A stretch of 64,000 nt of DNA, from NCBI GenBank assembly GCA_032718475.1, contig JAUCBJ010004144.1:124001-188000 (forward strand), in the 5' to 3' direction. The notes below the pieces were generated by a model. The model saw nothing but the letters and a program-made list of their open reading frames with translations, was not told where the DNA came from and searched no databases. Each line of letters starts with the position of its first letter. Position 1 is the stretch's first letter. Shown here one piece after another: positions 3,243-62,059 of the stretch. Made by a program: the position numbers and the translations under genes. The stretch is from Nemertoderma westbladi. Its lineage: Eukaryota > Animalia > Xenacoelomorpha.

Positions 3243-3360
3243 ATAATTAGATAGCGATTATTTTATATTTTAGGCCCCACCAGTAGATTTAGAAGTAGTT
3301 TGTAAATATTTTGTATTTCGATTGGTGAAAACAGTCTTACTTACTGTTTTCATGGAGCGG

Positions 3361-30046: not shown

Positions 30047-30183
30047 TGATAAATTATTTCACTATAAGGTATCATTTGTAGTTTAACTTTAACGTAAAAA
30101 CTTTTGAAAATCCGACGTATTTTGAGTAAGTTATAGTAATGTAATATTGCCTATTCATATTGTACACATAAAACCCTTAGGTA

Positions 30184-30263
30184 CTCTCGTGGCGTAGAGG
30201 TCAGATGGTTAAGGCGTTGGTTACATTACAGATAGGTTACGAGTTCGAATCCCGGTCGGGAAA
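30184..30263 (+). other. tRNA-like Pol III A/B-box module in U3 (also ~45005-45084)
   Basis: tggcgtagagg..ggttaaggcg..gagttcgaatcccggtcgggaa; the 3' part resembles the eukaryotic tRNA-Glu end (GGTTCGATTCCCGGTCAGGGAA). Confidence 0.6.
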
Positions 30264-30308
30264 TTTGTATTTTGAGGCCATTTATTTTCGTTTGGTGCTA
30301 ATTAGTGG

Positions 30309-30556
30309 ACCAATGAGAAGCGTACAACGTAGCGAATAATGAGCCAGGCCAATCATAGGGCATAAATTATCTTATTGCTCAAATGTGAGGCAGTGGAAAA
30401 TTCTGCTAGGATTCCATGTCCCAGATTAGTGTAAGGGCCGGATTACGTTGAACGATGAGCTGGGCCAATCATAGGGCACAAAGCACTTTATTGCTCAAAT
30501 ACGAAGCTGTGGAAAATTCTGTTTAGTTTCCATGTGCGATATTTAGTATAAAAAGG
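30309..30556 (+). promoter_or_regulatory. Putative LTR Pol II promoter: CCAAT boxes in a duplicated ~115-bp module plus TATA
   Basis: accaat ~30309; ggccaatcataggg at ~30347 and ~30463; gtataaaaagg ~30547. The sister LTR has gtatataaagg at ~3716. Confidence 0.65.
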
Positions 30557-33311
30557 CCGGTTTGCCTTCGGTTATTATTCTTCTACACACCCTTAATGTT
30601 AGATTCAGATTCTCTTAGTAATTGTGATCTCTCTCTCTCTGTTAGTTTATTTCGGTTTCTTGTTGAAACTTTGTTTGATAAATCATTTTGTAAAACTGTA
30701 AATATACTGCAAATTCCTGAACGTGTTTTTTCTTTGGTCCAACTTGGGACAGCCAAACATCAGGAGGATGGCAGCCTAGACCGTTAGGCCGTAAGCAACG
30801 CAGGGAAGAGATGTCCACAACACGCTAGCGCCCACATTGGATTGACCGCGCACCCCCCTTTGCCCTTCGAAATACTCGACTTGCCATGCAGCGCCGCTTT
30901 GTGAGAAAAGTAAGACTTTGTTCGACGCCCTTGCCTGCCGTAAGACCTATAGATCAGGGTAAGCGTGACGCCGTCCTGGACGCCGCAAATTTAGGATCAA
31001 ATAATTATATTCAGACAGAAACACCCCCCCCCCCTTTGTCATGTCCTACGAACCCCTGGGTTAACCTGTACTTCCTACAGGTAGGCTACGAACTATTGCC
31101 ATTCGTCAGTACGCGAGTACATATTAGGTACGGACAGCATATGTTCCATAATTTAGTGATTCGTAGTACTGACTGTTTGGTACCGGTTCGCTTTGTAGAA
31201 CGTACATTAGTACCCCCCCCCCCCCCCCCTGTCTGGAGTTAGCTATTTGATCAGGCAAGGAGTATTTCTGCTACCGGCACACTGCTTGGCCTAGGGAGGT
31301 TTATTAATATCCTACCGCGCCTTGCCACGTACTGATAGGTATTGCTGCTAACTACCGCAGCAACAAAATTCTAGAATTAAATTAGTATACCAGATCAGCT
31401 AACGTACGGTAGCGATTAACCCCTATTTCTTATCTTACAACCAGAATCTGGTATTAGTGCCGATCACGGGTGTAGTTACTAACACCGTGGTTGCCCATTG
31501 GGTTGTGGATAGGAAGGAGAGAGCTTTGACGTCATTTGTGAGTATAAAGTTCTACAAAACGCGACTAGTTTATTTTAGTAGCTAGCGCACGGTATCATTT
31601 TAGTCAGAAAATCACTAAAACCTAGTAAAGGAATTACACGAAATTGTTTTATTTGTAACACACCCACACACACACGCCCTAAAACATACTGCCCTTAGAG
31701 TTCTACTAGCTATAGCGCACTATACATTATTTTAGGTAGAAGTTATCTGTATTTGTAAAATTAGGATCTGATATTTAGTTGCGGCAATAAGGAGTATTTC
31801 ACTTTCGTTATTAAACTGTTGTTTTCTGTCCAGCAGTATTGTTACATTTAGGCCTGACCCTTTAGACTGATTTCGTACAGGGGGATCAGTTATTGTTACA
31901 TTTAGGCACGACCCCTTTTCGACTGATTTAGGACAGTCAGTGTTGTTACGCTAGGTCTGTTAACCCACTAGCTCGTATATAAACCATATAAATCACACCG
32001 CGGCAAGTTACTGTATTTAGGACTGTCAGTGATAGTTAGGATTCGCTGCGCGGGGATTGTTTTCCCGTGAGTTTGGTCTGTTACTGTAACTGTACATCTG
32101 CCTCACCGGTTAGAGGACAGGTATCCTTTTGTCTAGTACGTAGGCATTAGACTCGCTCACGTACATAGAATAGATACTAGGCTCTGTTCCTCGCCAGTAG
32201 TCGTTTGTGTACTGTATCTGTTCATTTAGATATCCTGGACTGGGATTTGTTATCAGATACTGTACGAGCCCGTATACATTACTAGAGTCTCATAGTAAGA
32301 TACATCGTTACTAGGATCTGGTAAGCGGTATACTACTGGACCCTTACAGTAGGAAGTATTTATTAAATATCTCAACCGAAAGTGCGTGCGCATTTAAAGT
32401 GAGATATAGATAAATATCTGTTAGCTATTGTAAGTAGGAGATATTTAAAAATTAAGGTTAGTAAATTTAGTAATTTAGAACGTCCCCTGCTTCAGTAGGC
32501 TTTTAGGGTAGCTAGTACTTTCGTATTTAATATTTGACTAGCTAACAGTTAGTTTGTAGCACTTTGTTTTACGCCGTGTGTGTGCGGTGTTACCTTTCGG
32601 TACTTGAAAAGGTACATAGGGTTTAAAGACCAATTTGTATCGGTACCTAGGAAGATTTTTCGTAAGCGTAGAAGTAAAACTCTCACATTCGACCTTTTCA
32701 GGACTCAAGGACTCATTTCTGGACCGCTTCGAGGATTAGACCGCTTTTCGCAAAGTTTGGGAGACAATAAATTCGGCCGCGCCGCCGAAAACGGAAAGAC
32801 CCACGTCCGGTTTGTATTTGGGAATTTGTACGACTGGAAGATTAAAGGAACGTAAGTTTTACGACTCGCGTCGTTCAAACTTAAGAAAGCACAGTAGTAC
32901 TCAAAATTTGTGGGTTTCACTGTCTATTAGTAGTGATGTTGGTTCTTATTTTCCCGTTAGACGTTGCTGTTTAGCCTATTATTTGTATTGTTGATCTATA
33001 TTTTGGTAACGTATACCGTTATCTCATTTATTCGTACAAATTTAGCCGGTAGGCTAGATTACTACTTATTTTATTGTATACCTTTGTTAGTTTTATTCGT
33101 ACCGGTTAGGGTATATATATGATATATATATATATCAAGGTAAGTTTGACATTTGTACATTTCGACATTTTGACATTTCGACATTCTGACTTGTTGATTT
33201 ATTTGTACCGGTTAGGGTATATATATACTATATATACCAAGGTAAGTTTGACACTTCAACATTCAGACACTTTGACATTTTATTACCCGTACTTGACGTA
33301 TATAATAAGAC

Positions 33312-36300
33312 ATGAGTGACACACCCCATTCGACGAGATACCCACCTACCGACTATGACTCGTGCGACCCGGACAGATCGACAGTAGACGAACCAAGAAG
33401 GAGAACCCGAGATTCCACCGATGTCACACCGCTTGCGTCGCCTGTACCCCGAATGGAAATACCGGAAGCCGCAACGCGTGGCGACGGCAGAATCGAAGAT
33501 TTCCTTACCGTCCCGCAGACTAGATCGCGGGAACCGGACATGGTAAGTTCGACTGGAAGCCAGGAGAACGTTATTAGAAGTATAGGAGGACACATGGCCC
33601 AGATTACTCGGAACCTCAGAGAAGGTTTTCGCGTTTTACGCGAGTTAACCGCCCCGATGTCGAGATACGAGTTCTACACCTTACAGGTAAGGATAGAAGG
33701 TAGGGTACATGCCTCCGTTGATAAACTTAAAGGTTTACACGAACTTGCAGAGTTGCGTGGCGACAACTTTACGCAGGTAAAGATAGTAGACAAATTGGTA
33801 AGTGCGAGAGAAAGCATTATCCAGTTTAAGTCGGTGATAAGATTGGCTCAACAGGAGCAGTTCGACCAACTGCTAGGTGAGTCAGTTTCGGACGCGTTGT
33901 TACAACCCGAAGAGGAAGAAGAACTCTACTGCTTGGACGGAAGGTTGGAAACGCTCACCAATTTTCTTCGTAGATGCGGCGTACCGATCGACGAACCAGA
34001 AGTCGAACCGCGAGGGACGACGGAAGTTCTCACTACAGAAGGCTCGCGAGCCTACCAGCATCCACCTCTGGATAGATCGTTCGTTAGCGTACGGAGCGAC
34101 GTTGGCAATGTTGGCGACGTTAGTAGAACAGCGTCTGGAATTACTCGACAACAACAGGAGGTCGCACGCCGACAACAAGTCGCTGAGGAAGAAACACAAC
34201 GACAATTGGCGCAGATTGCCATCAAAGGAGAAAGACAGCGTAGAGAAGACGTAGCGAAACTTGCGAAACTTCAAGCGCAGGCTGAGTTCGAAGCATCAGA
34301 AATGTGGAGACTGGAGGAGGACTTAGCGCGAGAAGCGGCCGCGGCGGCAGCAGCCGACGAGTTAGCCTGACAGGCGGCAGCTGACGAGTTAGCATGACAG
34401 GCAGCAGCCGACGAGCTAGCACGAGTTGCGGCGGTAAACGCAGCTGAGTTAGCACGGAAGAAGGCAGCATCCGACGCTCGCGCCAACTTGGAGGCGCGAC
34501 AAATAAACGCTCGTTTAGCTATACAGGAAGCGGAGTTAGCGGCACAACAACAAGTAGCGGATCGACGCGAAAGAGAGATGCAACTACAGTTCGAACTGAA
34601 TCGTAGATCGCGCGAGGCAGCGAACGCGCAAGCGGACCTCGAACTCGACGCGAGAGATAGATCTATAAGATCGCGAACTGGACACGACTTGTCTGCCCTG
34701 GATCGCATGGAGACTCGATATCGCGGAATACAGAAGCGAATCGAGGAAGGAAGTGTGGGAGCGATAGATCGAGGAGAGGAGTTCGTCGAGGATTACTGTA
34801 AACGTTTTCCCCAAGTTATTCCTATGCTCAAACCCACGACTCCGATAAAACCGGTCTTTGTTACGAAACCTAAGGAAATAACGCCTGTGCGTTCGACGCA
34901 AGGCAACAGGTTTGTTGTGACGGAAATACCGCAACCTAGGGCGACTTCATTGCCAATTTTAGCAGGTAACATAACTAGTCCACCTACAGTAAGTCGTAGT
35001 TTACTTGTGGAGAGAGACGAACCTGCGTTTATGACAGTAAAACAGGTGAGTAAACCATTACAAGTTGAACCTGTAACGCGCTGCGCGAACCCAGTCATTT
35101 ATAAACCTACAGTAGAGCTTAACTCCGATGTTTTTACTAGACCTCTCACCCAATGTTTAACGAGACCTACGACTTCGTGGAAGGCTTGCGAGCCTGCCGA
35201 ACAATGGAGAGCCGTAGATCTCAGACCACAACGAACTCGACCAAGAATAATACGCCGGACGCGAACCCGCCAACCACCTTATCCGGACGACAGCGATTCA
35301 TCCAGTGACTCGGAGTCGACGGAACGGGAAATATTCCGTACTGGAGCGGCAGCGGCAGCGGATTACAAACGGGAGGAACGATCGACGAACCCCTATATCG
35401 ATAATCCTCCACGAGAAACACCCCAACAGAAACCCACGTTGCAACCAGCGGAAGCGATCAGCACCAACAGACTCGCCAAAATAATGCGACCTGTAACGGA
35501 CCGACTAGCTCAACTCGAAGAACGACTTGAAGAGCAACCGTCGGATCGATCTCGAACCAGCGTGGAGTTGGAACAACCTAGACAACATCGACCACCGAGG
35601 AGAGAACAGGAGACTAGACGGACTCCGACACATCAAGAAGAAGATCCCGTTAATAATTCCTACCGACGAACAACGCGCGGAAGGGAGCGACTGGACGACG
35701 CCACCGAACAGGGACGCGGACAGTTGGATTTGGTTAGCGAGATTGCGAAATTCGCGGCTAGACACGGATTACCGGCACAGCAACCGCCAAAGTTCTCTGG
35801 CAACGCGAAACACTGGCGCACACTGGTAGACTACGTAGAGTCCCAGATCGCTAAGTGTGCTTTCACCTCGACGGAGAAGTTTAATTACTTGCTCCTAGTC
35901 CTGTCTGGTGAGCCGAATCGATTAGCGGAAACCTTTATTGGTGTTCCCGATGCCTTCGAGTTGGCTTACGACCGTTTGTATTCGATTTACGGCGGTAACG
36001 TAGCCATGGCTAAATCCATCATTGAAGACCTCTGCAGAGGAGGCAACATTTCGAAACCGATCGACCTTTTACGACTCGCGGACGAAATCAAGAACGCTAT
36101 AGGGACTTTACGATCCATTGGACAACTAGAGTATGCTAACGCACCGACGGTTCTCATTCGAATAATCGGTCGACTTCACCATCGACTACGAAGAGAATGG
36201 CGACGCATCGAGTACCAACGCGAAGAGGCCGGAGGGTTATTAAAACTCACCGATGTCTATCAACTGATTTCACGGGAGGCCGTGATCGAGACTCGATCGA

Positions 36301-39300
36301 ACTATACCGATCACCATATCGCGGCGGAAGGGATAGCTATTTCTGCGCCGAATCGGACTAAACCGTTTCCGGCGAACGCGAAAGCCGTTACTTACACCAC
36401 CCCTACTGAGACTTCTAAAGTTCTGACGCCTATCGGCACCACGCAGCCACGACAACAGTTGCCGGCGGACTTTATGGGATGTTCATACTGCGAGCGGAAC
36501 GGCAGAAACCATAGCGGACATAAACTACGTGGATGTCGCGCTTTTAATGAGTTAGGAATCGAGGAGAGGAGACTCCAAATCCGATCTCTAGATTCCTGTT
36601 GGAGATGTATGAAGCCAGGACACATCCGGAAGGATTGCCCGAGCGACGATACATGTTCTCTGTGTGGACGTAACCATGACGCGTTGCTTCACACAACCAG
36701 TCATACTCCGACCAGATGCTTTCGACGAGAGCATCCAGATAAAGCGGCTAGATGCGACGCGCTTTATAAGGAGCGTGCGCCGCGCGAGATCCGTACCTTT
36801 TATACCGACTGTATGGATCAGTCAGGATCATCGGACGAGGACGAGGAGGAAGACGACACTTTCTACGTGCATGCAGGTGAGGAACAGCCATTGATAACGC
36901 TCCTCACACAGAACCAACTGAAAGGGTTTAGCGTGATTCCTATAAAGATTACCGGAACCCGAGGGAGCAAGCGTATATACGCCATCTTAGACTCTGCGTC
37001 ATCGCATAGTTATGTCGACGAACAAGTAGCCGACGTAGTTACGGACATGAGTCAAGGTAAGACTGCTCAGTATACTGTAAGCAGCATGCATGGTAAGAGA
37101 GCGATCCCTGTGACGAGAGTAAAACTAACTTTAGACACTCTTCTTTCCAAAGCGGAACACAGCAAGGAGGAGCGCTCATTACTTCCGGTAAGAAATTTGA
37201 CCTTTGCAGCTACGAAGAACTTTAGCAACTTGCTCGGCCCTGTGCCAGAGCAATCACCGGAAGATCGTAAGTATTTCCGACACCTTGGAATACCAGAATG
37301 TCCTGTTAATTATCGTTCCATTGCGATGTTAATTGGGACAGACCAGTTTAACTTATATCAGGTATGGGAGACATGCCCATCTGTTATTACAGCGGGCAAC
37401 CCCTATGCATGTAGAACTCCCATAGGTTGGTATACTAGAGCACCAATACGTTCACTAGAGGTAAGTGACCAGGAGGACGACGTTTTGAGTACGTGTAGTT
37501 TATTGACTAACACGATAGATAATTCTCCTTCACACTCCTGTGGTCCAATTGTACGGACGGCACTACGACAGACTTGCGTCACTAATGCAGACGCCACCGA
37601 TACTGACGTAACCGATCTGGACACGACCATACGGACCTCTGACTTACAACTACTTGCAGTAGACCAGGTTGTATTGACTACTGAAGACCAAAGGGTTGTT
37701 GCCGTGGATGACTCGATGAACGAGGATTTTGGAAGGCTTGCGAGCCTACCGAAAAATCCGAAGGTCATTGACCCCACCCACCAGGCTTCGACACCGGTCG
37801 TTGATCTTGGAAGGCTTGCGAGCCTACCGATAGATCAAGAAGTTGTCAAACCGCCGCACGACGATTCAACGCCGACTAGTGACACCGGAAGGCTTGCGAG
37901 CCTACCAGACACATTGACACTAGCCACCGCAGCGGACGAAGACGTGGACGAGGACCATGGCGCAGTGCAAGCAGCGCTTGACCAACTGCTGACTGAACGG
38001 ACCATACAATGGTTGGAACAGGACTCAGCAGAACCCGGTAGTTACGAGACTGCTATGTCAGAACAGGAAAAACGGTCATTAAATATTATGAGAGATACCA
38101 TTCGCCAGACCGCGAATGGCCACTATGAGGTTGGTATGTTGTGGCGCAATGGACAACCTAAACTCGTTAACAATTACCCGCTTGCTTTGAGGCGACTCAA
38201 ATCAATAAGGCAGCGATTGTTGCGAGACGAGACAGCCCATATGCAATACAATGCACAACTTCAGACGTATCTCCAAAAGGGATACGCCATTAGGATGTTA
38301 AATCCCGAGGTAACCACAGACCAGACATATTACCTGCCACATCATTTTGTTCGACACCCGGACAAACCTGGCAAGGTGCGTGTAGTCAACGACTGCGCTG
38401 CGCTTTACCAAGGGATGTCTATGAACAGCGAACTGATGGACGGGCCGAATATGAATAATTACCTCATGGGAGTCCTAATGCGTTTTAGACAACGCAAAGT
38501 GGCTTTCACCTGTGACGTAGAGGCCATGTTTCACCAGGTTAAGGCTTTGGAGCGGGACAGGGACAGTTTGAGGTTTCTTTGGTATCCGGACGGAAACTTA
38601 CAACTTCCGCCAAAAACTTACCAAATGAAGGTAAGAGTATTCGGAGCCAGGGACAGCCCCAACTGCACCATGTACGCATTAAAGAAGACCGCATTGGACA
38701 GACGAGACCAATTAGACCCAGAAGTAGTTCGGACCGTGGAACGAGATTTCTACGTGGATGACGGCCTCAAGAGTTGTGACACCTTGGAGCGCGCTACAAC
38801 CGTAGCACACCAACTCCAGAATTGTCTCGCTGAGGGCGAATTTCACCTGACGAAGTTCGCTTACAACGAACCCGAACTGGTGAACTCATTTGACCCGACG
38901 GATCGCAGTGGAGGTGACTTAGACTTAGACCTAGAACCTCTGCCGACGACCAAAGTATTAGGACTTAGTTGGGACCCTAACACCGACAATTTTAGGGTAC
39001 GTGTAAGGTCCAATGACCAGACTAGACCTCTCACTAAGAGGACTTGCTTATCGACTATGAGTCGATTGTATGACCCATTGTGTTTCATTAGTCCAGTGAT
39101 CCTACACGCTAGGATCATACTCCGCAGCATTTGGCAAGCCGGACTGGAATGGGACGATCCCATCCCAGAAAAGTTAGCTGAGCGATGGAGGGACTGGGAA
39201 GCCCAACTGACATTCCTACAAGACTATACCATACCAAGGGTATACTTTCCTTTGCAAACCACCTTTCCTGCCGATTTAGAGCTTCACAGCTTTAGTGACG

Positions 39301-42182
39301 CTAGCAAGGATGGATTGGGGGTTACTTTATACCTTAGACGACAAGTGACATCGGACAGCTACGATGTATCTCTCGTTACTTCAAGGGCTAGAACAATGCC
39401 ATTGAAGTATATGACTGTACCTCGTGGGGAGCTGCAAGCCGGGACGATATCCACCGATATTGTCAGTCTAGTTCAACGCGAGCTGGAGGCTAACTTGAAG
39501 GTCACATATTGGACGGATGCGACGTTGGTACTTTGGTACATAAACAACGAAGCATTTGAGTTCAAGACTTTCGTAGCCAACAGACGGGCTGAAATATTAG
39601 ACCGGTCGCTCAAACAAGATTGGCGTCACTGTCTAGGGAAGCTGAACCCAGCTGACATCGCGTCACGGGGTATGCAACCGCTTGACTTTTGTAAACCGGA
39701 CAATAAATCCTTTTGGTTTAGAGGACCTGATTTCCTACAGCGACCATCAGACGAATGGCCACCGTTATTCGACGCGACAACCAACACCATACCAGAGGGT
39801 GCCGAGATAAAACTCGACAAGGTTGTCAAGTCTAAAGCGAAAGCCAACGCCAAGGTCAAGAGGAAAAAAGGACGGACGAAATCTGATGACCTGGACGCCA
39901 GACCTGACATTACGCCAGACGTCTCGCCAGACACTCGACCAGACGCTTGTACGAATCCTTCGCCGGATGTTCCGCGGGAGATTTCACCAGACGTTTCGCC
40001 GGATTGTTCACCAGATTACTCGCCAGACTATTCACCAGAAGAGACACCAGATTGTTCTCCGGATTGTTCGCCAGATTGTTTGATGGAACTCTCGACGGAA
40101 TGTCTACCGGACGTCTCACCAGACTTTCCACCAGACATCTCGACAGACTGTCCACCAGACTTTAGACCAGACTTTGAACCAGACTTTCTGACAGAAGTTA
40201 CGCTAGACAGACTTTGGGACCGACGACAGGACATTTCGCTGGAAGTTCCGCGCTATGTCTCACCAGACGTCTCACCAGACTGTTCACCAGACGCTTCACC
40301 AGACTGTCTACTAGACACTCCATTAGAAGAACCATTGGAGCGGACCTTTAGAGACTTACCAAATTTGACTTCTTTGGACGACGAAGGTGTGGCCACAGGG
40401 ATTACACTCCACTCGAAGAAGGTACTTGACTTACCTACAGGTAAACGTGTGACTAAGGTTAGGAAGCTTACAGGCTCACAGGAACACACTGGCACTGTAG
40501 AGTTGAAACCGTTACTGCCAGTCGACACATTAGGTGCGGACGGTAAAGGTAAGACCGTAGAGATTGACGTACTTGGGGACTCAGACAAACCTACCGGAAG
40601 GCCCGTGGGCCTACCAAGTCCAGACAAGTATCTACCCTACGACTACACCTTACCCGATGACGTCACCAACACTTACGTTGACAGGATAGTGAACCTAACT
40701 AGATCATGGACTGACGCGTGCCGCAAGTTAGCATGGCTCAAACGTTTGAGACAATATGCCAGAGGCAAACGCGACTTTCCTAGAAGACTTACCTTAAAGG
40801 AAATTGGCCACTGTGAAGTTGATATCATTCGTCATTATCAATTGCGATATTTCGCACGAGAGTTCACAGCGATCAAACAAGGTAAACAGATTAAGTCTTC
40901 ACCGATTTTGAGTTGGAGTCCGATTATTTACCGGGGCTTACTTTGTCACAAGTCCAGACTCCAAAACATCGACTTTGCACTTGACTTTAGGTATCCTATC
41001 ATCATACTGCAACACCATGAGTTACAGCGCGCTATGATACTGGACGCACATGTACAACTCAAACACGTAGGTAGACACCACTGTCTATCACACTTACGCT
41101 CGAGGTTTGTACTGATTAGACCTAGTAAGGCACTGAGTTCGGTAACACGGAACTGTATTATTTGTAAGAAGGTGCACGCGAGGATAGGACACCAAGAAAT
41201 GAGTGAACTACCACTAGCTAGATTACAGGCGTTTAGACCCCCTTTCACTGAGACAGGGATAGACTGTTTTGGACCCATAATCGCGAAACGCGGAAGGGTA
41301 CAGGTAAAACGTTGGGGATTGATCTTCACTTGCATGGCCAGCAGAGCTGTCCATATAGAGCGAGTGACAGACTTTACCACCAATGCCTTTATCCTAGCCT
41401 TACGGCGATTTATCGCTAGACATGGATTGGTCAAATCCATATACTGCGACCAAGGGACAAACTTTGTGGGTGCACGGAACGAAATAACCAGAGCTTTGAG
41501 AAAATTGGACCAAAACCAGATTTCCGAGGAACTACGTCCTCACCGTATTGTTTGGTTTTTCAATACTCCAGACAGTCCGTGGAGAGGCGGCGTTTGGGAA
41601 AGGCTGATTGGCTCAATAAAGACAGCTATGGCTAAAGTCGTACCGACGCAACACATCTTGACAGACGACCAATTGACGACGTTACTAATAGAAATCGAAG
41701 CAATCTTAAATACTAGACCGATCGCTTTGATCCCAGACAATAACGACGTACAGTTTGCCTTGACACCAGCGCACCTGCTTATGCAGGCGCCGACGACACT
41801 GTTGCCCATTTCGGTACCCGTTGATAGTGACGGATACGGCAACAAGGCTTGGAAAATCACTCAATTACTTGCAAATAAATTCTGGGAAATATGGCAGAAA
41901 TATTATTTGCCCTCTATTTCGACCAGAACTTCTTGGTATCTAAATACCCGATGTTTAAGACGTGGTGACCATGTTTTATTAGCTGAAGCTAATCTGAAAA
42001 GACGGTTTTGGCTGACTGGAGTCATTTTGACCACGCACCCTACATCTGGTGTAGTGAGGACAGTTACTGTAAGAACTATCGACGGACGTACCGTAGATAG
42101 GCCTGTACAACGTCTCGTACTTCTTGAGGAGACTAGAAACGAGACGGGAGACTACAAATCTCCACCCAATATTAGTAAATAG
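33312..42182 (+). CDS. gag-pol: BEL/Pao Gag-Pol polyprotein (2,956 codons in one frame, interrupted by TGA at 34368-34370 and 34395-34397)
   Basis: ORFs 33312-34370 and 34488-42182 share a frame. Gag core KFSGN ~35790; Cys-His knuckles CSYC/CWRC/CSLC 36480-36692; protease ILDSAS ~36984; RT YLPHH ~38331 and YVDD 38751; RNase H FSDAS 39291 and NPAD 39645; integrase H..H..CxxC, DCFGP 41262, DQGTNF, GGVWE. Confidence 0.95.
34344..34427 (+). repeat. 27-bp tandem repeat x3 (AAADELA*/R) carrying the two gag stops
   Basis: gcagccgacgagttagcc-TGA-cag / gcagctgacgagttagca-TGA-cag / gcagccgacgagctagca-CGA-gtt. Confidence 0.9.
37731..37906 (+). repeat. 78-bp (26-aa) periodic repeat in the PR-RT linker, each unit starting with the 20-nt hairpin (GRLASLP)
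   Basis: ggaaggcttgcgagcctacc at 37731, 37809 and 37887. Confidence 0.9.
39898..40316 (+). repeat. 12-bp coding minisatellite encoding xSPD tetrapeptides between RNase H and integrase
   Basis: Repeated tcgccagac/tcaccagac: ISPDVSPDCSPDYSPDYSPEETPDCSPDCSPDC..VSPDVSPDCSPDASPDC. Confidence 0.9.
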
Positions 42183-42679
42183 ATGTGGGACCTTAATTGG
42201 CCGCCACATAGACCTACTGTATTTTAGTTATTTGTATTTGTTTAACTGTACGTGCATTTGTAATCCTCTTCACTGTAGATAGAGACAGCGGTGGAATTCC
42301 ATTGTCTTTATACGTGAACATGGAGGGTAGTACCCTTATGTATCACATAGGAGCGGGATTGTGTGTACAGTAGGAATGGAATTCCACTTGGAACCCACAA
42401 GTGAGACAATTTTTCAAAAATTATTAGACAAATCCATTTATTTGGATTTAAATTTAAGAAAACGATTCTCCAGTGAAAGCAAATTCTAGAATACAGCTAG
42501 ATAAAAATTAAAATTGGGGAGGACAAGAGCGGATGGAAGGCTTGCGAGCCTACCGATAAAATTTTTTTTGGAAAAAGAAAATCGGCCTTGTTCTACGTAG
42601 TTGTGTCTACTATTATTTAAACCAATTAATTCTCGACTGCACTATTTTTCTTGGGAAATGTAGTTTGGGAAATTAAAAG

Positions 42680-42877
42680 GTAAGTATTTTAGACTCGCGG
42701 CTAGTTTACCCGGAATTCGTTTTTTATCGGCACATTTTTTGGATTAGGAGCCAGTGCGAAATCACGCGAACCCGAAATCATTAGGCAAAATGGGTTGGGG
42801 TTTAGAGCAGAGTTGAGCCAAAAGCCGACAAACTCTAAGTCACCTCACATCTAACCTCTATTTTGTGCTTCATCTAG
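42680..42877 (+). other. Candidate spliceosomal intron upstream of ORF3
   Basis: AAG|GTAAGT donor, CTAAC branch point 42851, pyrimidine tract, CTAG| acceptor. The sister copy keeps AAG|GTGAGT (1651), ctaac and tcctctag (1848). Confidence 0.55.
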
Positions 42878-42919
42878 TAGAAACGTAATGATATGTAACC
42901 ACATATATATTCGTATACG

Positions 42920-44408
42920 ATGGCGGAGAAGATGTATAAAGAGTTACGTCAAGGGTTTACGCAAGAACAAGAGCACCAGGCGCCATTCAATCGTTATGGA
43001 GCTAAAAACTTTAGTGTGTTTGGAGTTTAGAGTATGGCTAGGAGTACGGCCAAGCTCGCTAAATCCAAGGCGGACCCAAATGTTACGCGACAGCGGTTGG
43101 ACGCATACAACAAAAGAACGGAGGAATTACGCGCGGAGTTCAATGCGTTATATCCCTACGATGCGTTATGCGACGCTAGCAACATTTGCGAGGATCCAGA
43201 CACCGAAATACGCCGATTGTATCATACGCTGCAATATTTGACGGTAAACGAACCCTTACCTGCAGCTAGAGACGAATTTGAAGGAATGCATCTTTATAGA
43301 CGCGCTCGAGGAGCGGATCCAGAGACCAAGGACGCGTTCTCCATATACAAACTGTTTTATAAATGTGGAGCGTGTATGCGCGAGCAAGACAACGCGATTC
43401 CTATGCGGTTGAACTCGGAGAACCCCGAGCCAATATTAGCGCGATGTTCATACCACCAAAGTCTACGTTACCAAGAAGGCGGATACCCTTTAACAAATCC
43501 GTATCATTCATTTAAAATGAGTGGACCGAACGCGGGTGAGATCGTTATTTACGAACCCAAATTAGTCGAACCAGACGTCTACAGCATGGTAGTGGACGAG
43601 TCTAATAAGTCGACACAAGAGAAACGGGAAGCTTTGAGCCTCTACAGGGCGTACAAGGCGTACGAGAAAGGCGAGATCGAGGAGTTCGGAGGAAGGCTCG
43701 CGAGCCTACCATTCTATTGGATATCCCACGATCAAACCGAACCCAATGAGATGACACCCGAGCTCTTCGATAGTATCACCTCTGCTCAGCGTTTGTCGCA
43801 GAGACTACAGATACCTCATGTCGAGATGACGCGAGAACCTCAGCCCCATTCTACTGGAGCGATAGTACCGGTTGCGAGACCAACTAGTTTTCCTATTAGT
43901 ATACCGACCCGGAAGGAGACAACTTACGAGATCCCTATAGTTGAACACCCGGAGATCATCTCGAACCTGGATTTCCTCCCATCGGTTACCTTCGGTGATG
44001 TGTTAGAGTCAACCGAGTTGCGTAAAGTAATAGTTCAAAAAAATCGTACGCAACGTGCCTCCCCATATCACGGACTTTAAGGAAGTGGATCGCGCGGGGA
44101 CGGATATCGCACCTTGTATCTTGCGAGGATATCTGACGAAAACGATTCGATTATGGATCGGAGTTGGAACGTTTGAAACCGACACCGATATCGCGACCAA
44201 TTGGACCGGTAAACCTATTAGTTTCGATGATGAGAAGTCGATTGGGAGAATTTGGAACCCAGCCGACGATTTACTCGACGATTGGGACGTGACTAGCCGA
44301 TCTCTGAATATTATATTTGGGTATTTATATTGGACATTATGTTTGAATGTTGGGTTTGGAGGAGCGAGATATGGAAGGAAGGCTTGCGAGCCTACCGTTA
44401 GCAATTAG
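42920..44408 (+). CDS. Accessory ORF3, unknown function, putative CxxC..CxxH zinc-binding protein (reconstructed ~495 aa; intact segment 43034-44080)
   Basis: 348-aa ORF. In-frame upstream extension MAEKMYKELRQG.. is blocked by TAG 43028-43030 (GAG in the sister copy). Removing one A from the A7 run 44037-44043 fuses it to 44055-44408. Homologue at 62060-63642 on the minus strand. Confidence 0.75.
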
Positions 44409-44860
44409 TGCTCAGGAGAAGATATCCAGACCAGCAGGACGAACTATTTATATCGTCAGGAGGACATTATTTGGAAGTTATTAGCGCATTATGTTTATAT
44501 TATATTTGAACTGATTTAATTTGGTGAAGGTTTATTATGTATATTTACAAAATATAAAGATTTATTGAAAGAGTTACAATTATTTGTTCGATTTGTTTTG
44601 ATTTATTTGTTCTAATTTGTTTAATTTGCTTACCTTGATAACCGAAAGCCTTTTTTTCGTATTTTAGGCACTAAAGTTAATTCGTAAATTTGTATTTGTA
44701 TGTACGATCGATTGTATTTACGTCGTATCTGCAATATTAAGTATGCAATAATTAGATAGTGATTATATTTTATATTTTAGGCCCCACCAGTAGATTTAGA
44801 AGTAGTTTGTAAATATTTTATATTTCGATTGGTGAAAACAGTCTTACTTACTGTTTTCAT

Positions 44861-44867
44861 GGAGCGG
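44861..44867 (+). promoter_or_regulatory. Short PPT-position motif GGAGCGG
   Basis: Directly precedes the 3' LTR TG; same motif at 3354-3360 and, on the minus strand, 62034-62040. Confidence 0.7.
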
Positions 44868-47160
44868 TGATGAATTATTTCACTATAAGGTAGCATTTGT
44901 AGTTTAACTTTAACGTAAAAACTTTTGAAAATCCGACGTATTTTGAGTAAGTTATAGTAATGTAATATTGCCTATTCATATTGTACACATAAAACCCTTA
45001 GGTACTCTCGTGGCGTAGAGGTCAGATGGTTAAGGCGTTGGTTACATTACAGATAGGTTACGAGTTCGAATCCCGGTCGGGAAATTTGTATTTTGAGGCC
45101 ATTTATTTTCGTTTGGTGCTAATTAGTGGACCAATGAGAAGCGTACAACGTAGCGAATAATGAGCCAGGCCAATCATAGGGCATAAATTATCTTATTGCT
45201 CAAATGTGAGGCAGTGGAAAATTCTGCTAGGATTCCATGTCCCAGATTAGTGTAAGGGCCGGATTACGTTGAACGATGAGCTGGGCCAATCATAGGGCAC
45301 AAAGCACTTTATTGCTCAAATACGAAGCTGTGGAAAATTCTGTTTAGTTTCCATGTGCGATATTTAGTATAAAAAGGCCGGTTTGCCTTCGGTTATTATT
45401 CTTCTACACACACTTAATGTTAGATTCAGATTCTCTTAGTAATTGTGATCTCTCTCTCTCTGTTAGTTTATTTCGGTTTCTTGTTGAAACTTTGTTTGAT
45501 AAATCATTTTGTAAAACTGTAAATATACTGCAAATTCCTGAACGTGTTTTTTCTTTGGTCCAACTTGGGACAGCCAAACATCAGGAGGATGGCAGCCTAG
45601 ACCGTTAGGCCGTAAGCAACGCAGGGAAGAGATGTCCACAACACGCTAGCGCCCACATTGGATAGACCGCGCACCCCCCTTTGCCCTTCGAAATACTCGA
45701 CTTGCCATGCAGCGCCGCTTTGTGAGAAAGGTAAGACTTTGTTCGACGCCCTTGCCCGCCGTAAGACCTATAGATCAGGGTAAGCGTGACGCCGTCCTGG
45801 ACGCCGCAAATTTAGGATCAAATAATTATATTCAGACAGAAACACCCCCCCCCCCCCTTTGTCATGTCCTACGAACCCCTGGGTTAACCTGTACTTCCTA
45901 CAGGTAGGCTACGAACTATTGCCATTCGTCAGTATGCGAGTACATATTAGGTACGGACAGCATATGTTCCATAATTTAGTGATTCGTAGTACTGACTGTT
46001 TGGTACCGGTTCGCTTTGTAGAACGTACATTAGTACCCCCCCCCCCCTGTCTGGAGTTAGCTATTTGATCAGGCAAGGAGTATTTCTGCTACCGGCACAC
46101 TGCTTGGCCTAGGGAGGTTTATTAATATCCTACCGCGCCTTGCCACGTACTGATAGGTATTGCTGCTAACTACCGCAGCAACAAAATTCTAGAATTAAAT
46201 TAGTATACCAGATCAGCTAACGTACGGTAGCGATTAACCCCTATTTCTTATCTTACAACCAGAATCTGGTATTAGTGCCGATCACGGGTGTAGTTACTAA
46301 CACCTTGGTTGCCCATTGGGTTGTGGATAGGAAGGAGAGAGCTTTGACGTCATTTGTGAGTATAAAGTTCTACAAAACGCGACTAGTTTATTTTAGTAGC
46401 TAGCGCACGGTATCATTTTAGTCAGAAAATCACTAAAACCTAGTAAAGGAATTACACGAAATTGTTTTATTTGTAACACACCCACACGCCCTAAAACATA
46501 CTGCCCTTAGAGTTCTACTAGCTATAGCGCACTATACATTATTTTAGGTAGAAGTTATCTGTATTTGTAAAATTAGGATCTGATATTTAGTTGCGGCAAT
46601 AAGGAGTATTTCACTTTCGTTATTAAACTGTTGTTTTCTGTCCAGCAGTATTGTTACATTTAGGCCTGACCCTTTAGACTGATTTCGTACAGGGGGATCA
46701 GTTATTGTTACATTTAGGCACGACCCCTTTTCGACTGATTTAGGACAGTCAGTGTTGTTACGCTAGGTCTGTTAACCCACTAGCTCGTATATAAACCATA
46801 TAAATCACACCGCGGCAAGTTACTGTATTTAGGACTGTCAGTGATAGTTAGGATTCGCTGCACGGGGATTGTTTTCCCGTGAGTTTGGTCTGTTACTGTA
46901 ACTGTACATCTGCCTCACCGGTTAGAGGACAGGTATCCTTTTGTCTAGTACGTAGGCATTAGACTCGCTCACGTACATAGAATAGATACTAGGCTCTGTT
47001 CCTCGCCAGTAGTCGTTTGTGTACTGTATCTGTTCATTTAGATATCCTGGACTGGGATTTGTTATCAGATACTGTACGAGCCCGTATACATTACTAGAGT
47101 CTCATAGTAAGATACATCGTTACTAGGATCTGGTAAGCGGTATACTACTGGACCCTTACA
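44868..47160 (+). repeat. 3' LTR (2,293 bp)
   Basis: tgatgaattatttcac..ggacccttaca followed by TSD gaatt. Confidence 0.96.
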
Positions 47161-55092: not shown

Positions 55093-56068
55093 GGTATTAG
55101 TAGGTATTAGTATTATAATAATAGGTATTAGTACCGGGCTATAAAATGTTGTACAAATACCGGGAAGGGGCCATATTGACCCCCCCCCCCCCCTCTAAAA
55201 TCTACAAATAATTACGAAAAAACGTCTGATTTTTTGTTTGTACGTAGGTATCACTTGTCTGGATCCGACCAAAAAAAAAATTTCCGAAAAAATGTAGTGG
55301 GGTGGTTATATTGCAGCACCAAAATTACAAGTAGTGCACAATTTTCACAAAATTTGAAAGTTACATTTTAGGCTAATTATTTTTCAATACAGGTTTTCTA
55401 GGGTGCAAAATACATTGGAAAATATTTAAAAAATGATATGATTACTATAAATGGCTGTTTAGTCCTCTCTGCGTAAGAAAAAAATGAAAAAAACAAGTAA
55501 CCAGCACTTTTCAGATAGAACTCAAAATGTTTAATTCACTTATACGATGCTATAAGTTCACATTTTCAGGTTTTCGAGAGCGCTGATTCTAATGGAATAC
55601 ATTTCTAATATGCCAGATCATTGCTACTTGTATTTTTCGGCGTAATTTGGCAAATTTCGGTGCTAGCACCTAATTTCGTACCCATCACCAAAAAGTACAT
55701 GTTTGCGAAGTCCAGTGCTGTTTTTATTGATTCCATCGGATTCAGGACCCTCATAAACCCGTATAACGCAAGAAACAAGGTGATACTATCAACTTATCAA
55801 TTTGCATGTTTTCCAAAATTTGGTGCTGGCACAACAATTTTCACCCACCAGCGAAAAATACAAGTTTGAGAACTTTTATGAAATTTTTACTGATTCCATT
55901 GAATTCAGAACCATCACAAACCCGTATAACGCAAGAAACAAGGTGACACAATCAATTGATATATTTGATGGTTTTCAAAATTTGGTGCTAGCACCACATT
56001 TTGCACCCACATCCGAAAAATACAAGTTTGAGATGTCTAGTTCGATAATTATATTTTCCATTGAATCG
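55093..56068. mobile_element. Degenerate non-autonomous DNA-transposon remnant resembling 10868-12283
   Basis: ggaaggggcc..poly-C (55162-55193) resembles 12244-12270; ~110-160-bp internal repeats (aatttggtgctagcacc, cccgtataacgcaagaaacaaggtga) resemble 12078-12120. Ends not resolved. Confidence 0.5.
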
Positions 56069-57723
56069 CTTAAGGTGTCATTTCTATTCAAAATTCTAGG
56101 CGTAGTGACATTCCCAGGATTACATTTCACTGTATCTCTTAAAATGTTAATTAATTGTGCTTGGGCATCGAGCTGCTTTTCCATCTCATTAACCTTGGCA
56201 TTTATATCATGTGTATAATTAGGTTCACCGTTCGAATATTGAAGACCATTCCCTTCCTGGTGAACTTCAGTTCCTTTTGTGTTCATTGGTATTCTGGGCA
56301 TATTAAACCGCACTTCTTGAGTTCCCTTGGGCACAAAGCTCGCATTTACCTCGAGGGAATGTGCCCGAGGATCAGTTGGGTAAACTCTATGAGAGTCACC
56401 AAAAAGTCGATTTTCCTTAAGAGGTTGAGTCTGATAAAAATACTTTGGCCGAGTGGTGCGAGACCTGGTGGTATCATTCCAATCAGAACTTCCCAAAGGC
56501 ATCTTTGAAGCTTCATTGGTGGCAATCTCTGCCACATCTTTATGACTCCTGGTCTCCCTATCATCCTCTCTTACTGTAACTTCCACCTGATTAATAGAAA
56601 CTTGTGGACTCGCCACTTTCCATGGTGTAGAATCGACTACTGCAGTTACTGGTAATAAATCACCTAACCGGGTTGAAGCAAAGTTAGGGACAGCAGTTTT
56701 TAACTCTTGGGAGAGTCGCAGTTCTTGACTGGGTTGTTGAGCTAGTTTGTCTCTCACTCCTATTAATGTCCTTTCTGTGCTTTGTCTCCGCTTTCTAGGG
56801 GTTGACCCAACTGAGTTGGCGCTGGAACAATGACTAGATTGAACACAATATGATAGTGCAAGTTCCTTTTCTAATTTCAAGGAGTTTAACTTCTTCCGGG
56901 ATTCCAGCTCATCACGTTCCTCCTGCATACGACGCTCAATATCGGCTTGTCGCTTCCTTTCAATATTTTCTCGAAGTCTCTCCTCGCTTTCACGTTGCTC
57001 TATTTCCTGGGTGAGTGCCAATTTTTCTTTCTCATATCGTTTCCGAATAGCCTCGGCTTCGATTTCTGCTTCTATTTCCGCTTGTAATCGAGCAGCTTCC
57101 TTTAGCTGCTGTCTTTGTAAACGAGAAGCAGATGATACCATGGATCCATCACTTGATTCGATATTGTTAATGGGCGTTTGAATTCTTTCGCTCTCAAAAT
57201 GTGGTAACTCAGGTGGAGTAACTCCTGTTCGGCCAAGTATAGTGTTATAAACTGAATGTGTTCATTGTAACTGCCTTCTGACATGAGATCGTGCTTTATC
57301 AACCAAGGCTGGCAGTTCCATGTATTTGCCATACCGCTCAAAGAGTTGGACAGTACACAAAGCTCTATCGAACCTTGGTTGTATCGCCGCGTAAAGCCGT
57401 TTGCCTGTTTCTGGTGAGAGAGAGGTTGGCGAAGATGACAAGTTTACACTGTGTTGTTGGATGTAGCGTGTGTATGCTGCTGAATAACCGCCTAGTGAAC
57501 GAGTAATAGACTCAATATCTTTGTCTGGGTCGAATCCGGCGGCACGCATTTCAGACAGAATCACAGTAATTTCATCACGATAATGGGATGATAAATTGTC
57601 TAAAGAAGGCTGGACAGAGACAGGAGGGATTGTTTCAACAATTGTTGAATCATGGGGACCTAGCTGTTCATCCGCCTCAACCTCAATTTCACTAAAAGAA
57701 AGGCCAGATTCATTCGTGGCCAT
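56069..57723 (-). pseudogene. Frameshifted, truncated N-terminal gag of a second BEL-like family
   Basis: Overlapping ORFs 57262-57723, 57102-57341 and 55975-57141 in different frames. E/R/Q coiled-coil followed by a disordered region, as in 33312-35700. Capsid core absent, so identity is inferred from architecture and context. Confidence 0.6.
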
Positions 57724-59239
57724 TTTGTTTAATTACTGATTTATAAGGTTAAATTAGGTAAGGCCTATGTTAAATACAGTACCGGTAGTAACAGGCCTAA
57801 AATATTATGTATATACCAGTATATTGATATATAGTAGGCCTAGGCCTAAAGCAGTAAAGTACCAATACTAATAACTAAAATAGTACCGGTAGGCCCAAGG
57901 TACAAAGTTACCGGTACCGGTATGATCTGATATATATATATAGTATGCAGGCAGGCCTAATTAGAAGTACAGAACTACAGAAGTACCGGTAATCAAATGG
58001 AAGCTTAATTTAATATTATAATACCGGTAGTTTATTACTAGGCTCACAGATTTCAAATACCAGTAGCGCCACCAGCACAATTCTGCAATTTGCCGCCTGT
58101 TACAGTCGTACAGTGTTATACTTACCGGTAATATATTTAACTTTGAATTATTACCGGTATAAATAAATAAATTTTGTCACCCGATCAGAACTGACTCGGC
58201 AAAATGATTTAATAAATAGAACCCCACACACACTCCAGATAAACACATAAAATGTACCGGTATCGGTCTGCCGGTATGGTACAGAAACTGGAGAGCAAAA
58301 GCTGAAAGTGGGTCGCCCAACGCTGCAACGTATGTCAGTATGGCGTATGGCTAACTAGCACCATGTAGGCCTACAGCAGTAGGTATCCGGTACGGTACCA
58401 TATGTAACCTAGTGTCAGTATCAGTACACACACACGCAGGGCAGTTCTTTATTTATGGCAGGCTATAGAAGAACAGAAGAACTGCTAAATCAGAACTCCT
58501 TTGTTAATATAAGAATGGCCACCTGGGTTTGATCCGCAGGAAACACAAACTCGGGGGAGAGACGAAAGACTCTCCCTTTAAATCGGGATTTGGCTAACCC
58601 AAAATGGAAGGTTCCGTTAAACTCACGGGTTCTGGCTGTCTGATTTGGAACTTACCTCTTACCTGAAGAAAAAATGTCTGTATCTACTAATTCCGAAAGT
58701 ATGGTCGGTAACTGTTCAGACACAAGAGCTGAGGATACAAATAAACAACAGAAAAAGGTGTCTGGCTTCCGCTAACTCGTAGAGAGAACGGGGACAGAGC
58801 AAAAATGCACCTCAAAACCGAGACTGTAACCAGGTAACCGAGCACTTCAATAAACACTCCGCCAACGTCGTCACGTTATTGGCTAATTGGCGGAAGGGGA
58901 AAAACGTAAATAACAAACCAAAGATCAATGATAAGCTAGGCTTTATTCACTATTCAGTCAGTCAGTTATTATCAGATTATCAACGATAGACTGCAATTTA
59001 CAGAGTGCTTTAACGAAGGCCAAGCCTTGCACTGCAATTTACCCGTGAACACGTTAACAAAGGACTAGTTCCTCCCGACATCAATAACAACAATATTCCA
59101 AAATACTGAAACACCGGTAGTGTACTACCTACCACAGTATTGCTGTACTGAACAAACAAAGTCAGATAGTGCTTTTACGAAGGCCAAGCCTTACACTGCA
59201 ATACCGGTATCGGACATTTTGTCATCTAAGATACAGTAG

Positions 59240-60904
59240 AAAGTGGACGGATAGGCAGATATTTTCATATTGACGGTTCGGCTAAGTACCAAGGACAGTC
59301 CCTCAACTCTGAGCTATTACCCGGACCCAACTTGTTACAATCTTTGCCCAGGATACTGATACGCATGAGACAATACGCGTTTGCTTCGGACATAGAGGGT
59401 ATGTATCTGCAAGTGAAAGCCTTGGCCATTGACAGGGACAGCATGCACTTTTTGTGGTAGACAGAAGGTGACTTGAATTCCAATCCAGTTGAGTATCGTA
59501 TGACTATACAGGCGTTCGGTATCATCTCCAGCCCTTCTAACTCGTGCTCAGTGTTACACCGGACAGCTGATGATCATCGGGATGAGTTCCCACCATCCGT
59601 CGTAGATAATATCAAAAGAGATATTTACATGGACAATAACTTAAAATCAGCTCCGATGGTTAAGGAGGCCATAGACATTGCCCAAGGGACAGTCAACTGT
59701 CTGAAGCTTGGAGGATTCCGCCTGACGAAATTTACCAGTAATTGTCATGAATTCCTGAAGGCCATACCTCCCGCAGAGTGTGGCGATACAGAGCTCGACT
59801 TAAAAGAATCTGAAGAAACTGCCAGAAACTAAGACATTAGGGCTCCGTTGGTTGACTGAAAGTGACACTATGGTGTTTAAAGTTAAGCTAAGAAAGGGCG
59901 ACACTTGAACTAAGCGCATTTGCCTCAGCATACTCAGCACTTATTTCGACCCCCTCGGCTTTATTAGCCCAGTTATACTGCTGGCCCAAGACCTAGTTCA
60001 GCGTATGTGGAGGGAAAACGACAGTTGGGAAGACCCCCTGACAGGGACACTCCTAGAGGACTGGTGGAAATGGGAACGGTCCTTACCTGACCTAGAAAGG
60101 TTCTCCTTACCCAGGGCATACTTCCCAAATGTAGATTCCCTGCAGACTTATGAACTCCATGTGTTTGGTGACGCGAGCGACAAAGGTATCGGGATTGTAG
60201 CTTACTTTAGATGTGAAACCTTAGATGATGTCTCAGCATTGGTTGCCTCAAAGGCTTTGATAAGACCAATCGCCAAGACAAAAGACACCCTAACTATTCC
60301 CCGAGCCGAACTTAAGGCGGTCATATATGCCACTATCATCCCTAAGAATGTGTTAGCAGCACAGACAGACTATAAGGTAATAAGGACAGTTTACTGGACA
60401 GACTTCACTACTGGACAGGCTGCATTTAGAATATCTGACCAGCACGACATGCCAGTTCAGTGTATATGTGATGAACCGTGTGGCACGAATATTGAAAGAA
60501 ACAAGTGTCGATCAGTGGATGCACTGTCCAGGATTGCATCCACTGACATTGCGTCTCGCGGTGCCACCCCCCAGGAACTGCTAGATGCTAAGTGTTGGTT
60601 ACAGGGCCTTGTCTTTTTGCGAGGCCCTGAGAATAGTTGGCCCCCAAACTTAACACCTGCAGAAATAAGGCAACAAGCAAAGGGTGCGAAAATTGCTAAG
60701 TCTAAGAACAAAGCGTCTAAATCAAAACTATTCAGAAATATAGACATATCTTCACTGCATGTACATGAGAATATAAGCCAACAAAGCCCCCCAGACAGTG
60801 AAGCCCTTATTACCCTTTCAGTTCCAGATTTGGCTGGCGGCCTTTCACCGCTCATTAGCAAAGCCATGGACCATTACAGTTTGTTCGCGCTTTCAGACCT
60901 TTAG
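59240..60904 (+). pseudogene. pol: BEL/Pao RT-RNase H fragment (second family)
   Basis: SLNSELLPGPNL..FASDIEGMY..FLW*, YMDN, FDPLGFISPV, LHVFGDAS, TIPRAEL, YWTD, DIASRG; contains stops and frameshifts. Confidence 0.92.
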
Positions 60905-62033
60905 CAGTTTAACCTGCCAAATTGGGGTGTCTTCTAGATAATAGATCGTCTTTAGCCTATGACAAGTATTTGATACACTACATTAGCCGAAGCCAGTCTA
61001 TGCGCGATCATTCACCCGCTGGATATACCCGGGAGACTGGATTCGGAAGCCTAACCGTATTGCAGGGTAGGCCTACTGTATTATTCGACTGATCGTAATA
61101 TATATAATCTCTGACAAATATTATTCACTTTCGGGAAATATTAACAGTTCCTTTAGGACGTGGCGCTTTAAATATATAAACAGAGTTATGACTTAAACTA
61201 GACACAACGGGATGGCTATAGATTCACGTATATGGCGCATTCTTTAGGAGATGCTTTGTTATCAATCACAATCATACACAATACTGCACAATGCTGCACA
61301 CTAATCTGCCGACCTTCACTAATTTTAGTCACATATAAGGAGAACAACAGACAATACGTGTAGGGCCTATAAAATAGCATTAGATTCACTTCAAACCACT
61401 TAATGTAAGTCGCAATCGTTATATGTATCCGGTCTCTCTAACCTTTAGTATATCAAGAAGATTGGGGTGTCTGATTATTTATCAGTATTCCAAATATAAT
61501 ATTCCATCAACAAATATAATGAATAACCGACAGTAAATAGCAGTAAAATGTTAAGTTAAGTTATGTGAGTAATGATTGTTTTGTATGATAACAGATATAC
61601 GTTCTATAATTAAGCCTACTAATGTTGAGCTAAAGACTGAAACACGGAGGTTCCAAAGCCGGTGTTCTTAGGCTGTGGACAAATCACATACTCACTCAAC
61701 TCCACGAGTTTCTATATACCATCTCCAACACAGAGGCAAAAAACACTCTGATTGGTCGACCGAACAAAGAAGGAACAGAGAACAAAGAACAAGCTCCACG
61801 TGTACAGCTCAGCTGTTAGCCGTCGTCATGGTAGCTACACTGTTTCAAGAGGATCCAGCGTATTGCGTCATAAAATTGTTAATTATGTCCGCTAAAGTAC
61901 ACATACAGCAGAAATGGCTTTTATGTCCTCTAAAACAACAGTACAGTAAGGACACGGCCCTTTATGCCTGTTAAACCAACTACAGAGTACTTTACGGGGA
62001 AAATAACCAGCTAATTACGCAAAAGCCTTTACA
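60905..62033 (-). repeat. Probable LTR portion of the second family
   Basis: Minus strand gggagcgg|TGT at 62040-62031, CCAAT (~61750) and TATATA (~61714), downstream of the ORF3 homologue. Left boundary unknown; no partner LTR in the window. Confidence 0.55.
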
Positions 62034-62059
62034 CCGCTCCCAGAAAATGGGATTTAAGT

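Follow-up and report, generated by a model that had tools for sequence, protein, structure and literature searches.

The BEL/Pao element and its accessory ORF

The window (the whole stretch of DNA analysed, 64,000 nucleotides) contains an LTR retrotransposon, element A, with gag-pol in a single frame and an accessory gene, ORF2, on the sense strand between the end of pol and the polypurine tract (PPT) that precedes the 3′ LTR. It also holds a deleted sister copy of the 3′ region of the same family and a degraded homologue of ORF2 from a second family, B (Table 1).

Table 1. Positions of the features discussed in the text, numbered within the window
Feature	Position	Strand	Remarks
Element A, whole BEL/Pao LTR retrotransposon	30047–47160	+	17.1 kb, inside 416-bp satellite array
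5′ LTR of element A	30047–32349	+	2.3 kb
Consensus donor-like sites CAAG/GTAAGT in leader	33140–33247 (at 33140, 33242)	+	Pattern match
gag-pol of element A	33312–42182	+	Single frame; two in-frame stops in this copy (34368, 34395)
Conserved non-coding spacer	42208–42880	+	Contains one hairpin
ORF2, accessory gene	42920–44408	+	Broken here: stop 43028–43030, frame change near 44037
Conserved block 1 (ExRRLYxTLxYLT..PLP...DxFE)	43184–43297	+	Common to A and B
Conserved block 2, C-x2-C-x23-C-x2-H	43349–43486	+	Putative zinc site
PPT of element A, GGAGCGG	44861–44867	+	
3′ LTR of element A	44868–47160	+	TG at 44868
Nine copies of the 20-nt near-palindrome	34037, 35179, 37731, 37809, 37887, 40596, 42535, 43691, 44377	+	
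Sister copy of family-A 3′ region	1174–3734	+	Deleted; ~87% DNA identity
Three 20-nt copies in sister copy	1508, 2232, 2567	+	
Degraded ORF2 homologue, family B	62060–63642	−	Stops, frameshifts
PPT/LTR boundary of element B, GGAGCGG/TG	62032–62040	−	

Element A is a young BEL/Pao element. Its LTRs are 99.0% identical over 2305 columns and end in TG...CA, a 5-bp target-site duplication (TSD), GAATT, flanks the insertion, and there are satellite units on both sides, up to 30046 and again from 47161; paired LTRs of this kind, a short TSD and a PPT 5′ of the 3′ LTR are features expected of BEL/Pao elements. The Pfam domains DUF1759, zf-CCHC, Peptidase_A17 (E 1e-39), Integrase_H2C2 and DUF5641 were found in gag-pol, and the Pol motifs LDSAS (aa 864), YVDD (aa 1452), DASK (aa 1634) and HHC/CIIC (aa 2227–2253) give the order PR-RT-RH-IN. 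The best database matches of pol are BEL pol sequences with ~41% identity; where a source is named, it is mostly a marine invertebrate. In a quick tree of the RNase H region, built from 57 rows (55 of the 113 fetched matches and two from the window), both window pols fall on long unsupported branches, and the BEL subclade is therefore left without assignment. With a genome of 17.1 kb and LTRs of 2.3 kb, the element is larger than the Belpaoviridae described by ICTV (genome 4.2–10 kb, LTR 0.2–1.2 kb), a range that is descriptive rather than defining (PMC8742986). Pro/Asp-rich short repeats (PDVS/PDCS-like) at 39900–40330, in the linker between RNase H and integrase, partly explain this size. 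No TGG of a canonical primer-binding site for tRNA-Arg or tRNA-Gly was found directly after the 5′ LTR end at 32349 (32350–32370), although the TSD shows clean integration. By eye, the LTR at 45005–45085, its 5′ LTR equivalent and the sister copy (3465–3535) contain a tRNA/SINE-head-like stretch with A- and B-box-like motifs, for which ARAGORN and Rfam gave no call.

The 416-bp satellite array occupies positions 5534–55092, with an orientation switch at ~53972 and two insertions, and a non-coding MITE-like insertion with terminal inverted repeats and internal sub-repeats lies in the satellite at 10868–12284. The position of element A inside the array, which is also flanked by two other copies, raises the idea that ORF2 tethers the pre-integration complex and so directs integration into satellite or heterochromatic DNA. 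We consider this improbable, as there is only one clean insertion and elements that are not purged from satellite DNA should accumulate there. The targeting modules known so far are usually fused to integrase.

The preliminary description of this DNA reported a sense ORF in the interval from pol to the 3′ LTR; it is present, but not as one open frame in this copy. From the ATG at 42920, the first frame reaches the stop at 43028–43030 and continues beyond it from 43031 to 44080, and a second frame covers 44034–44408, the frame change lying at an A-run near 44037. Position 43028 has another letter in all overlying contigs of three DNA runs (23, 12 and 5 contigs), the A-run differs in length in some contigs of three DNA runs (5, 1 and 2 contigs), and the sister copy (1866–2430) has no stop at the codon matching 43028. 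The breaks therefore look private or polymorphic, and with them set aside the ORF2 of the family would probably span ~495 codons. Runs X1 and X3 (17013 and 7831 contigs, where depth is not copy number) cover each of the 30 depth bins, those of ORF2 among them, which makes ORF2 a regular constituent of a family with many copies. The encoded protein is net acidic (44 K+R vs 54 D+E), has neither an arginine-rich motif nor a clear NLS, and contains only 8 Cys in ~495 aa.

Selection on ORF2, and a degraded homologue in family B

The sister copy retains the spacer, remnants of ORF2 without the Cys/His block, three hairpins, the PPT and the start of the LTR, and allows 186 codons of ORF2 to be compared. 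These give a dN of 0.055, a dS of 0.381 and a dN/dS of 0.145 (Sd 38, Nd 23, Fisher p 1.5e-12), with 41 of 63 mismatches at third positions, and the shifted-frame controls gave 1.9 and 1.3. The 25 comparable codons upstream of the stop have a dN/dS of 0.021. Later parts are weaker, with 0.43 over 76 codons and, in the C-terminal piece, 0.29 over 32 codons (p 0.09 in both cases, not significant alone). All three further ORF2 variants among the listed rows of the run comparison fall at third positions of the proposed frames. The earlier proposal of a selected accessory gene is borne out by this purifying selection, as the ratio is well below 1, and we conclude that ORF2 is almost certainly a real selected gene.

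Alignment also confirmed the motifs which the preliminary description had noticed in both ORF2 and the broken minus-strand ORF at 63642–62060. Block 1 (A 43184–43297 vs B 63141–63028) is 47% identical over 38 aa, with a tblastn E-value of 2.8e-5 within the window, a score of 37.4 bits vs 28.9 for the best of 200 shuffled queries, and a Smith–Waterman z of 9.9 (0/2000 shuffles). Block 2 (A 43349–43486 vs B 62983–62867) has a z of 5.0 (2/2000 shuffles); in B it follows block 1 immediately, past a frameshift, and the blocks of A and B are collinear. No DNA similarity was detected between the two ORFs (best blastn E 0.19), and both lie 5′ of GGAGCGG/TG (62040–62032 in B), again as first described. 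A third piece of B remained unmatched to A (z 0.4, 651/2000 shuffles), and one downstream frame piece of the B ORF contains a basic KKLRKRRPRKKD stretch. The two ORFs are very probably homologous, with a small conserved core common to both and unrelated C-terminal parts.

The Cys codons of block 2 in A are at 43364, 43373 and 43445 and the His codon is at 43454, and the spacing C-x2-C-x23-C-x2-H in A compares with C-x2-C-x16-C-x2-H in B. As the sister copy lacks this block, only two sequences display the Cys/His pattern, and from these it seems likely that ORF2 binds zinc. The THAP finger (C2CH) has the form C-x2-4-C-x35-50-C-x2-H with conserved P, W and F. The pattern of ORF2 does not fit this form: the spacers are 23 and 16 residues, and no THAP match was found at E up to 10.

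The proposal of two divergent BEL/Pao families holds in part. It is correct for element A; for element B we infer BEL/Pao membership from the PPT in common with A, the place of the gene and the BEL-like fragments close by, because its own pol would be located past 64000 and so outside the window. On the strand opposite to the B ORF lies the BEL pol fragment at 59272–60694. The region it belongs to, 55975–60904, combines this plus-strand RT/RNase H fragment, 34–43% identical to the pol of A, with minus-strand gag-like coiled-coil ORFs at 57723–55975, downstream of the B ORF and on the same strand; neither Pfam nor BLAST gave support for the gag-like ORFs. We note in passing that this region appears to be a rearranged or nested second element.

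Searches for relatives of ORF2 were blank. Pfam returned no match, only the sub-threshold Flp_N, HydF_tetramer, TMEM192 and DNA_ligase_A_N; a word-index search (5.8 billion) confirmed 0/372 candidates for the core and 0/115 for the C-terminal piece; the ESM Atlas gave no usable match in two attempts; there were no matches among PDB sequences at E 10; and 0/86 and 0/10 ORF2 pattern matches were confirmed in JGI metagenomes and IMG/VR. An HMMER profile of three rows, from which the Cys/His block of B was left out since MAFFT could not align it, produced one match among 1.84 billion representatives. This match, P0116, is a 6142-aa Corynebacterium repeat protein with a best domain of 11.9 bits and was rejected as a homologue. 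The sequence ‘A6’ had no other match in the six frames of the window. The AlphaFold2 models were unusable (pLDDT 35.2 and 44.1), and Foldseek, which found no match at E <= 0.001 with these models, is uninformative. The nearest pol relatives are only ~41–44% identical, indicating that the host lineage is poorly sampled; the blank searches therefore do not show that the family is narrow, and may reflect an unsampled host.

The position of ORF2 is that of env, and BEL elements have captured several unrelated glycoproteins, according to two accounts (PMC13524379, PMC8742986), so that ORF2 could be an unrecognized env or a cell-to-cell transmission factor. In a Kyte–Doolittle scan, the main frame peaked at a 19-residue hydropathy of 0.81 and the C-terminal piece at 1.33, in a mildly hydrophobic stretch, and there was no N-terminal hydrophobic core and no signal-like or transmembrane segment, in agreement with the earlier remark that no signal peptide is evident. 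No homology to viral F, gB or Gc ectodomains was found in Pfam or PDB sequences, and the protein has few Cys. ORF2 is also far longer than the sORF2/FAST fusogens, short (63–107 aa) single-pass membrane proteins in the available text of their description (PMC11952523), from which it differs in hydropathy as well. Env-like and sORF2/FAST-like proteins are therefore unlikely, and a hidden env or transmission factor is very improbable. The view that this is an old, non-env accessory gene of no recognized family is supported by the homology to B, the selection and the blank searches, which brought no env or host-gene match from Pfam, PDB or the 1.84 billion representatives. ORF2 is a genuine unexplained accessory gene, encoding a new protein family, in a known kind of element.

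Splice-like signals and a repeated 20-nt motif

The spacer between pol and ORF2 has two acceptor-like sites, one at 42278 and one, found by eye, near 42877, as well as a donor-like site at 42680 that keeps to GTRAG in the sister copy. The divergence of the spacer between A and the sister copy is 4.8% over 668 aligned positions, compared with an ORF2 dS of 0.38, and the putative exon 42279–42680 folds better than 100/100 shuffles (z −4.4). The simplest reading of these signals would be that ORF2 is made from a spliced subgenomic mRNA, the alternative being an internal promoter. Joints at the predicted splice sites were not seen among the listed rows of run X5 (35 contigs from another organism, RNA by guess), a result that weighs neither for nor against splicing. 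An origin of the spacer as a duplicated leader was not adopted, the similarity being marginal (7/300 shuffles). At 42347–42385 the spacer contains a PPT-like GGAGCGGGAT followed by TGTGTGTACAGTAGGAA, the last ten letters of which also span the 5′ LTR/leader junction at 32345–32356. This stretch, with which TGTGTTTACAGTAG upstream of the ORF of B may be compared, might represent either a central PPT or a relic junction, or else serve as an acceptor.

A feature absent from the preliminary description and new here is a repeated 20-nt near-palindrome, GGAAGGCTYGCGAGCCTACC, of which the window has nine copies in the internal region of A, three in the sister copy and none elsewhere. All copies are sense and none is in the LTRs; the expectation by chance is 0.01, and the count was reached in 0/100 window shuffles. 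Eight of the nine copies lie in coding frames, covering all three frames relative to the proteins and giving different translations (GRLASLP, KACEPT, GSRAYQ), so the constraint acts on the nucleic acid. The copies in Pol are interdomain (aa 261, 1112, 1138, 1164 and 2067), three of them in tandem and 78 nt apart. The consensus fold is GG-A-AGGCU-loop of 4-AGCCU-A-CC, with a constant purine–purine mismatch; one of its seven predicted pairs shows a two-sided change, U-A to C-G, in one of the nine copies (40596). The constant mismatch and the two-sided change are as an RNA hairpin would show. In a 40-nt context, 8/9 copies fold into this hairpin, but only 3/9 beat shuffles at z < −2. On the B side (55.1–64 kb), where little of element B is present, the 20-mer is absent within 3 mismatches; a shorter AAGGC-CAA-GCCTT occurs there twice, at 59017 and 59181, in rearranged non-coding DNA. 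A scan of viral contigs gave 0 matches, and two metagenome matches were set aside, both being isolated on GC-rich contigs without protein similarity to the window.

We tentatively favour ORF2 as a CERV/Rev-like regulator of the element's own RNA. Its mRNA would be spliced, joining a leader donor (33140 or 33242) to the spacer exon 42279–42680 and this to ORF2. The product, predicted to be soluble with a likely CCCH-type zinc site, would be nuclear and act on the full-length RNA of the element, possibly via the nine hairpins, whose recognition would lead to export, stabilization or packaging of the unspliced RNA. Selection, the two blocks common to B, low hydropathy, the splice-like sites, the conserved spacer and the sense-only hairpins in all frames were counted in support. 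Against it, ORF2 and the hairpins are linked only by the element they share, and three of the nine hairpins (42535, 43691 and 44377) would also be in the predicted spliced ORF2 mRNA, unlike an intron-confined RRE. The motif is missing on the B side, ORF2 is acidic without an arginine-rich motif, covariation is seen in 1/9 copies and shuffles are beaten by 3/9, and the Cys/His pattern comes from two sequences. That a BEL/Pao lineage has evolved a Rev/RRE-like system of its own, in which a new CCCH zinc-finger family with a spliced subgenomic mRNA recognizes the ninefold hairpin in the linker-coding regions of the genomic RNA, protein and hairpin co-diverging between families, is unlikely.

The same 20-mer could instead be read as DNA. 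A VANC-like anti-silencer, probably a dimer, would bind the near-palindrome in dsDNA and keep the chromatin of the element open; dimeric binding would go well with a near-palindrome, and DNA is a frequent target of small Cys/His zinc modules. The motif is family-specific, dense, in one orientation and partly in tandem, resembling VANC targets as the available text presents them (PMC5735166), and since VANC motifs too occur in one orientation there, orientation alone is no proof of RNA. This reading is nevertheless quite unlikely, as 8/9 copies are coding and none is in the LTR promoter while VANC sites lie mostly in non-coding DNA, the two half-sites of the copy at 40596 have changed in concert, and element A has no CpG depletion (o/e 1.15–1.41).

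The hairpins might equally serve Gag in packaging or be recognized by host factors. In a further reading, ORF2 would possibly, though doubtfully, counter host small-RNA or protein defences or serve as a capsid or replication cofactor via protein contacts, with the hairpins as independent Gag packaging signals. Protein contacts would suit an acidic protein that diverges fast, A and B being alike in a small core but not in their C-terminal parts. Hairpins along the whole genomic RNA fit multi-site packaging signals, and Gag has its own CCHC knuckles; on the other hand, we found no partner, fold or motif indicating a specific host pathway.

Comparison with known systems

BEL/Pao replication has been called poorly understood (PMC8742986), and the extra BEL/Pao genes in the available literature are env-like glycoproteins. 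No non-env Cys/His accessory ORF or repeated hairpin in BEL/Pao was found by full-text literature searches. That a selected non-env gene is common to two very distant elements suggests a further class of accessory gene. Little is settled about the way in which simple LTR elements export and select genomic RNA that contains introns, and CERV is one of the rare proteins to offer an example; here a single element combines a candidate trans factor with a candidate 20-nt cis element, which makes the idea testable.

Among Belpaoviridae, the env-like ORFs (roo F-like, Tas/gB-like, mosquito Chuviridae-like and Atlas phlebovirus-like) belong to the same superfamily and occupy the same slot as ORF2, but they are membrane glycoproteins of viral origin in the portions available of their descriptions, whereas ORF2 lacks signal-like and transmembrane segments as well as any homologue among viruses and is, for these reasons, not env-like (PMC13524379, PMC8742986, PMC9094657). 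The captured ORF3s of bdelloid LTR elements (PMC5408684) and the additional ORFs of plants (PMC7264820) are, in what is available of these papers, non-env, located in the stretch from pol to the 3′ LTR and often of unknown function. However, the bdelloid ORF3s are recognizable there as DEDDy, GDSL, transmembrane or F proteins (PMC5408684) and many of the plant ORFs are antisense (PMC7264820), while ORF2 is sense and matches none of either group by Pfam. VANC of Arabidopsis VANDAL is likewise an accessory protein encoded by a transposable element with a family-specific motif in one orientation; as far as the accessible text describes it, the element is a plant DNA transposon and the motif a 9-bp non-coding one, in contrast to the 20-nt near-palindrome mostly in coding linkers found here (PMC5735166).

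Retroviral Rev/RRE and constitutive transport elements follow the logic proposed for ORF2, in which an accessory protein and a structured cis RNA would export the unspliced RNA. Rev has an arginine-rich motif, which is lacking from the ORF2 of A, and the candidate cis element is scattered over nine sites, of which the predicted intron would leave out three. The remaining comparison is with CERV, encoded by Cer1 of C. elegans, which we take to be a Ty3/gypsy and not a BEL/Pao element. The premise that extra ORFs in this slot are env-like is incomplete in this respect, as CERV is a non-env Cys-finger protein (PMC10309623, from the part available). [quoted passage not shown] According to the accessible sections, some exons are common to CERV and gag and its finger is of the C4 type, compared with the CCCH pattern of ORF2, and a repeated RNA hairpin is not described for Cer1 in them (PMC10309623). 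In the same sections, CERV is, like ORF2, encoded in the interval from pol to the 3′ LTR and is needed for export of the genomic RNA, and it is the precedent for the CERV/Rev-like reading of ORF2 (PMC10309623).
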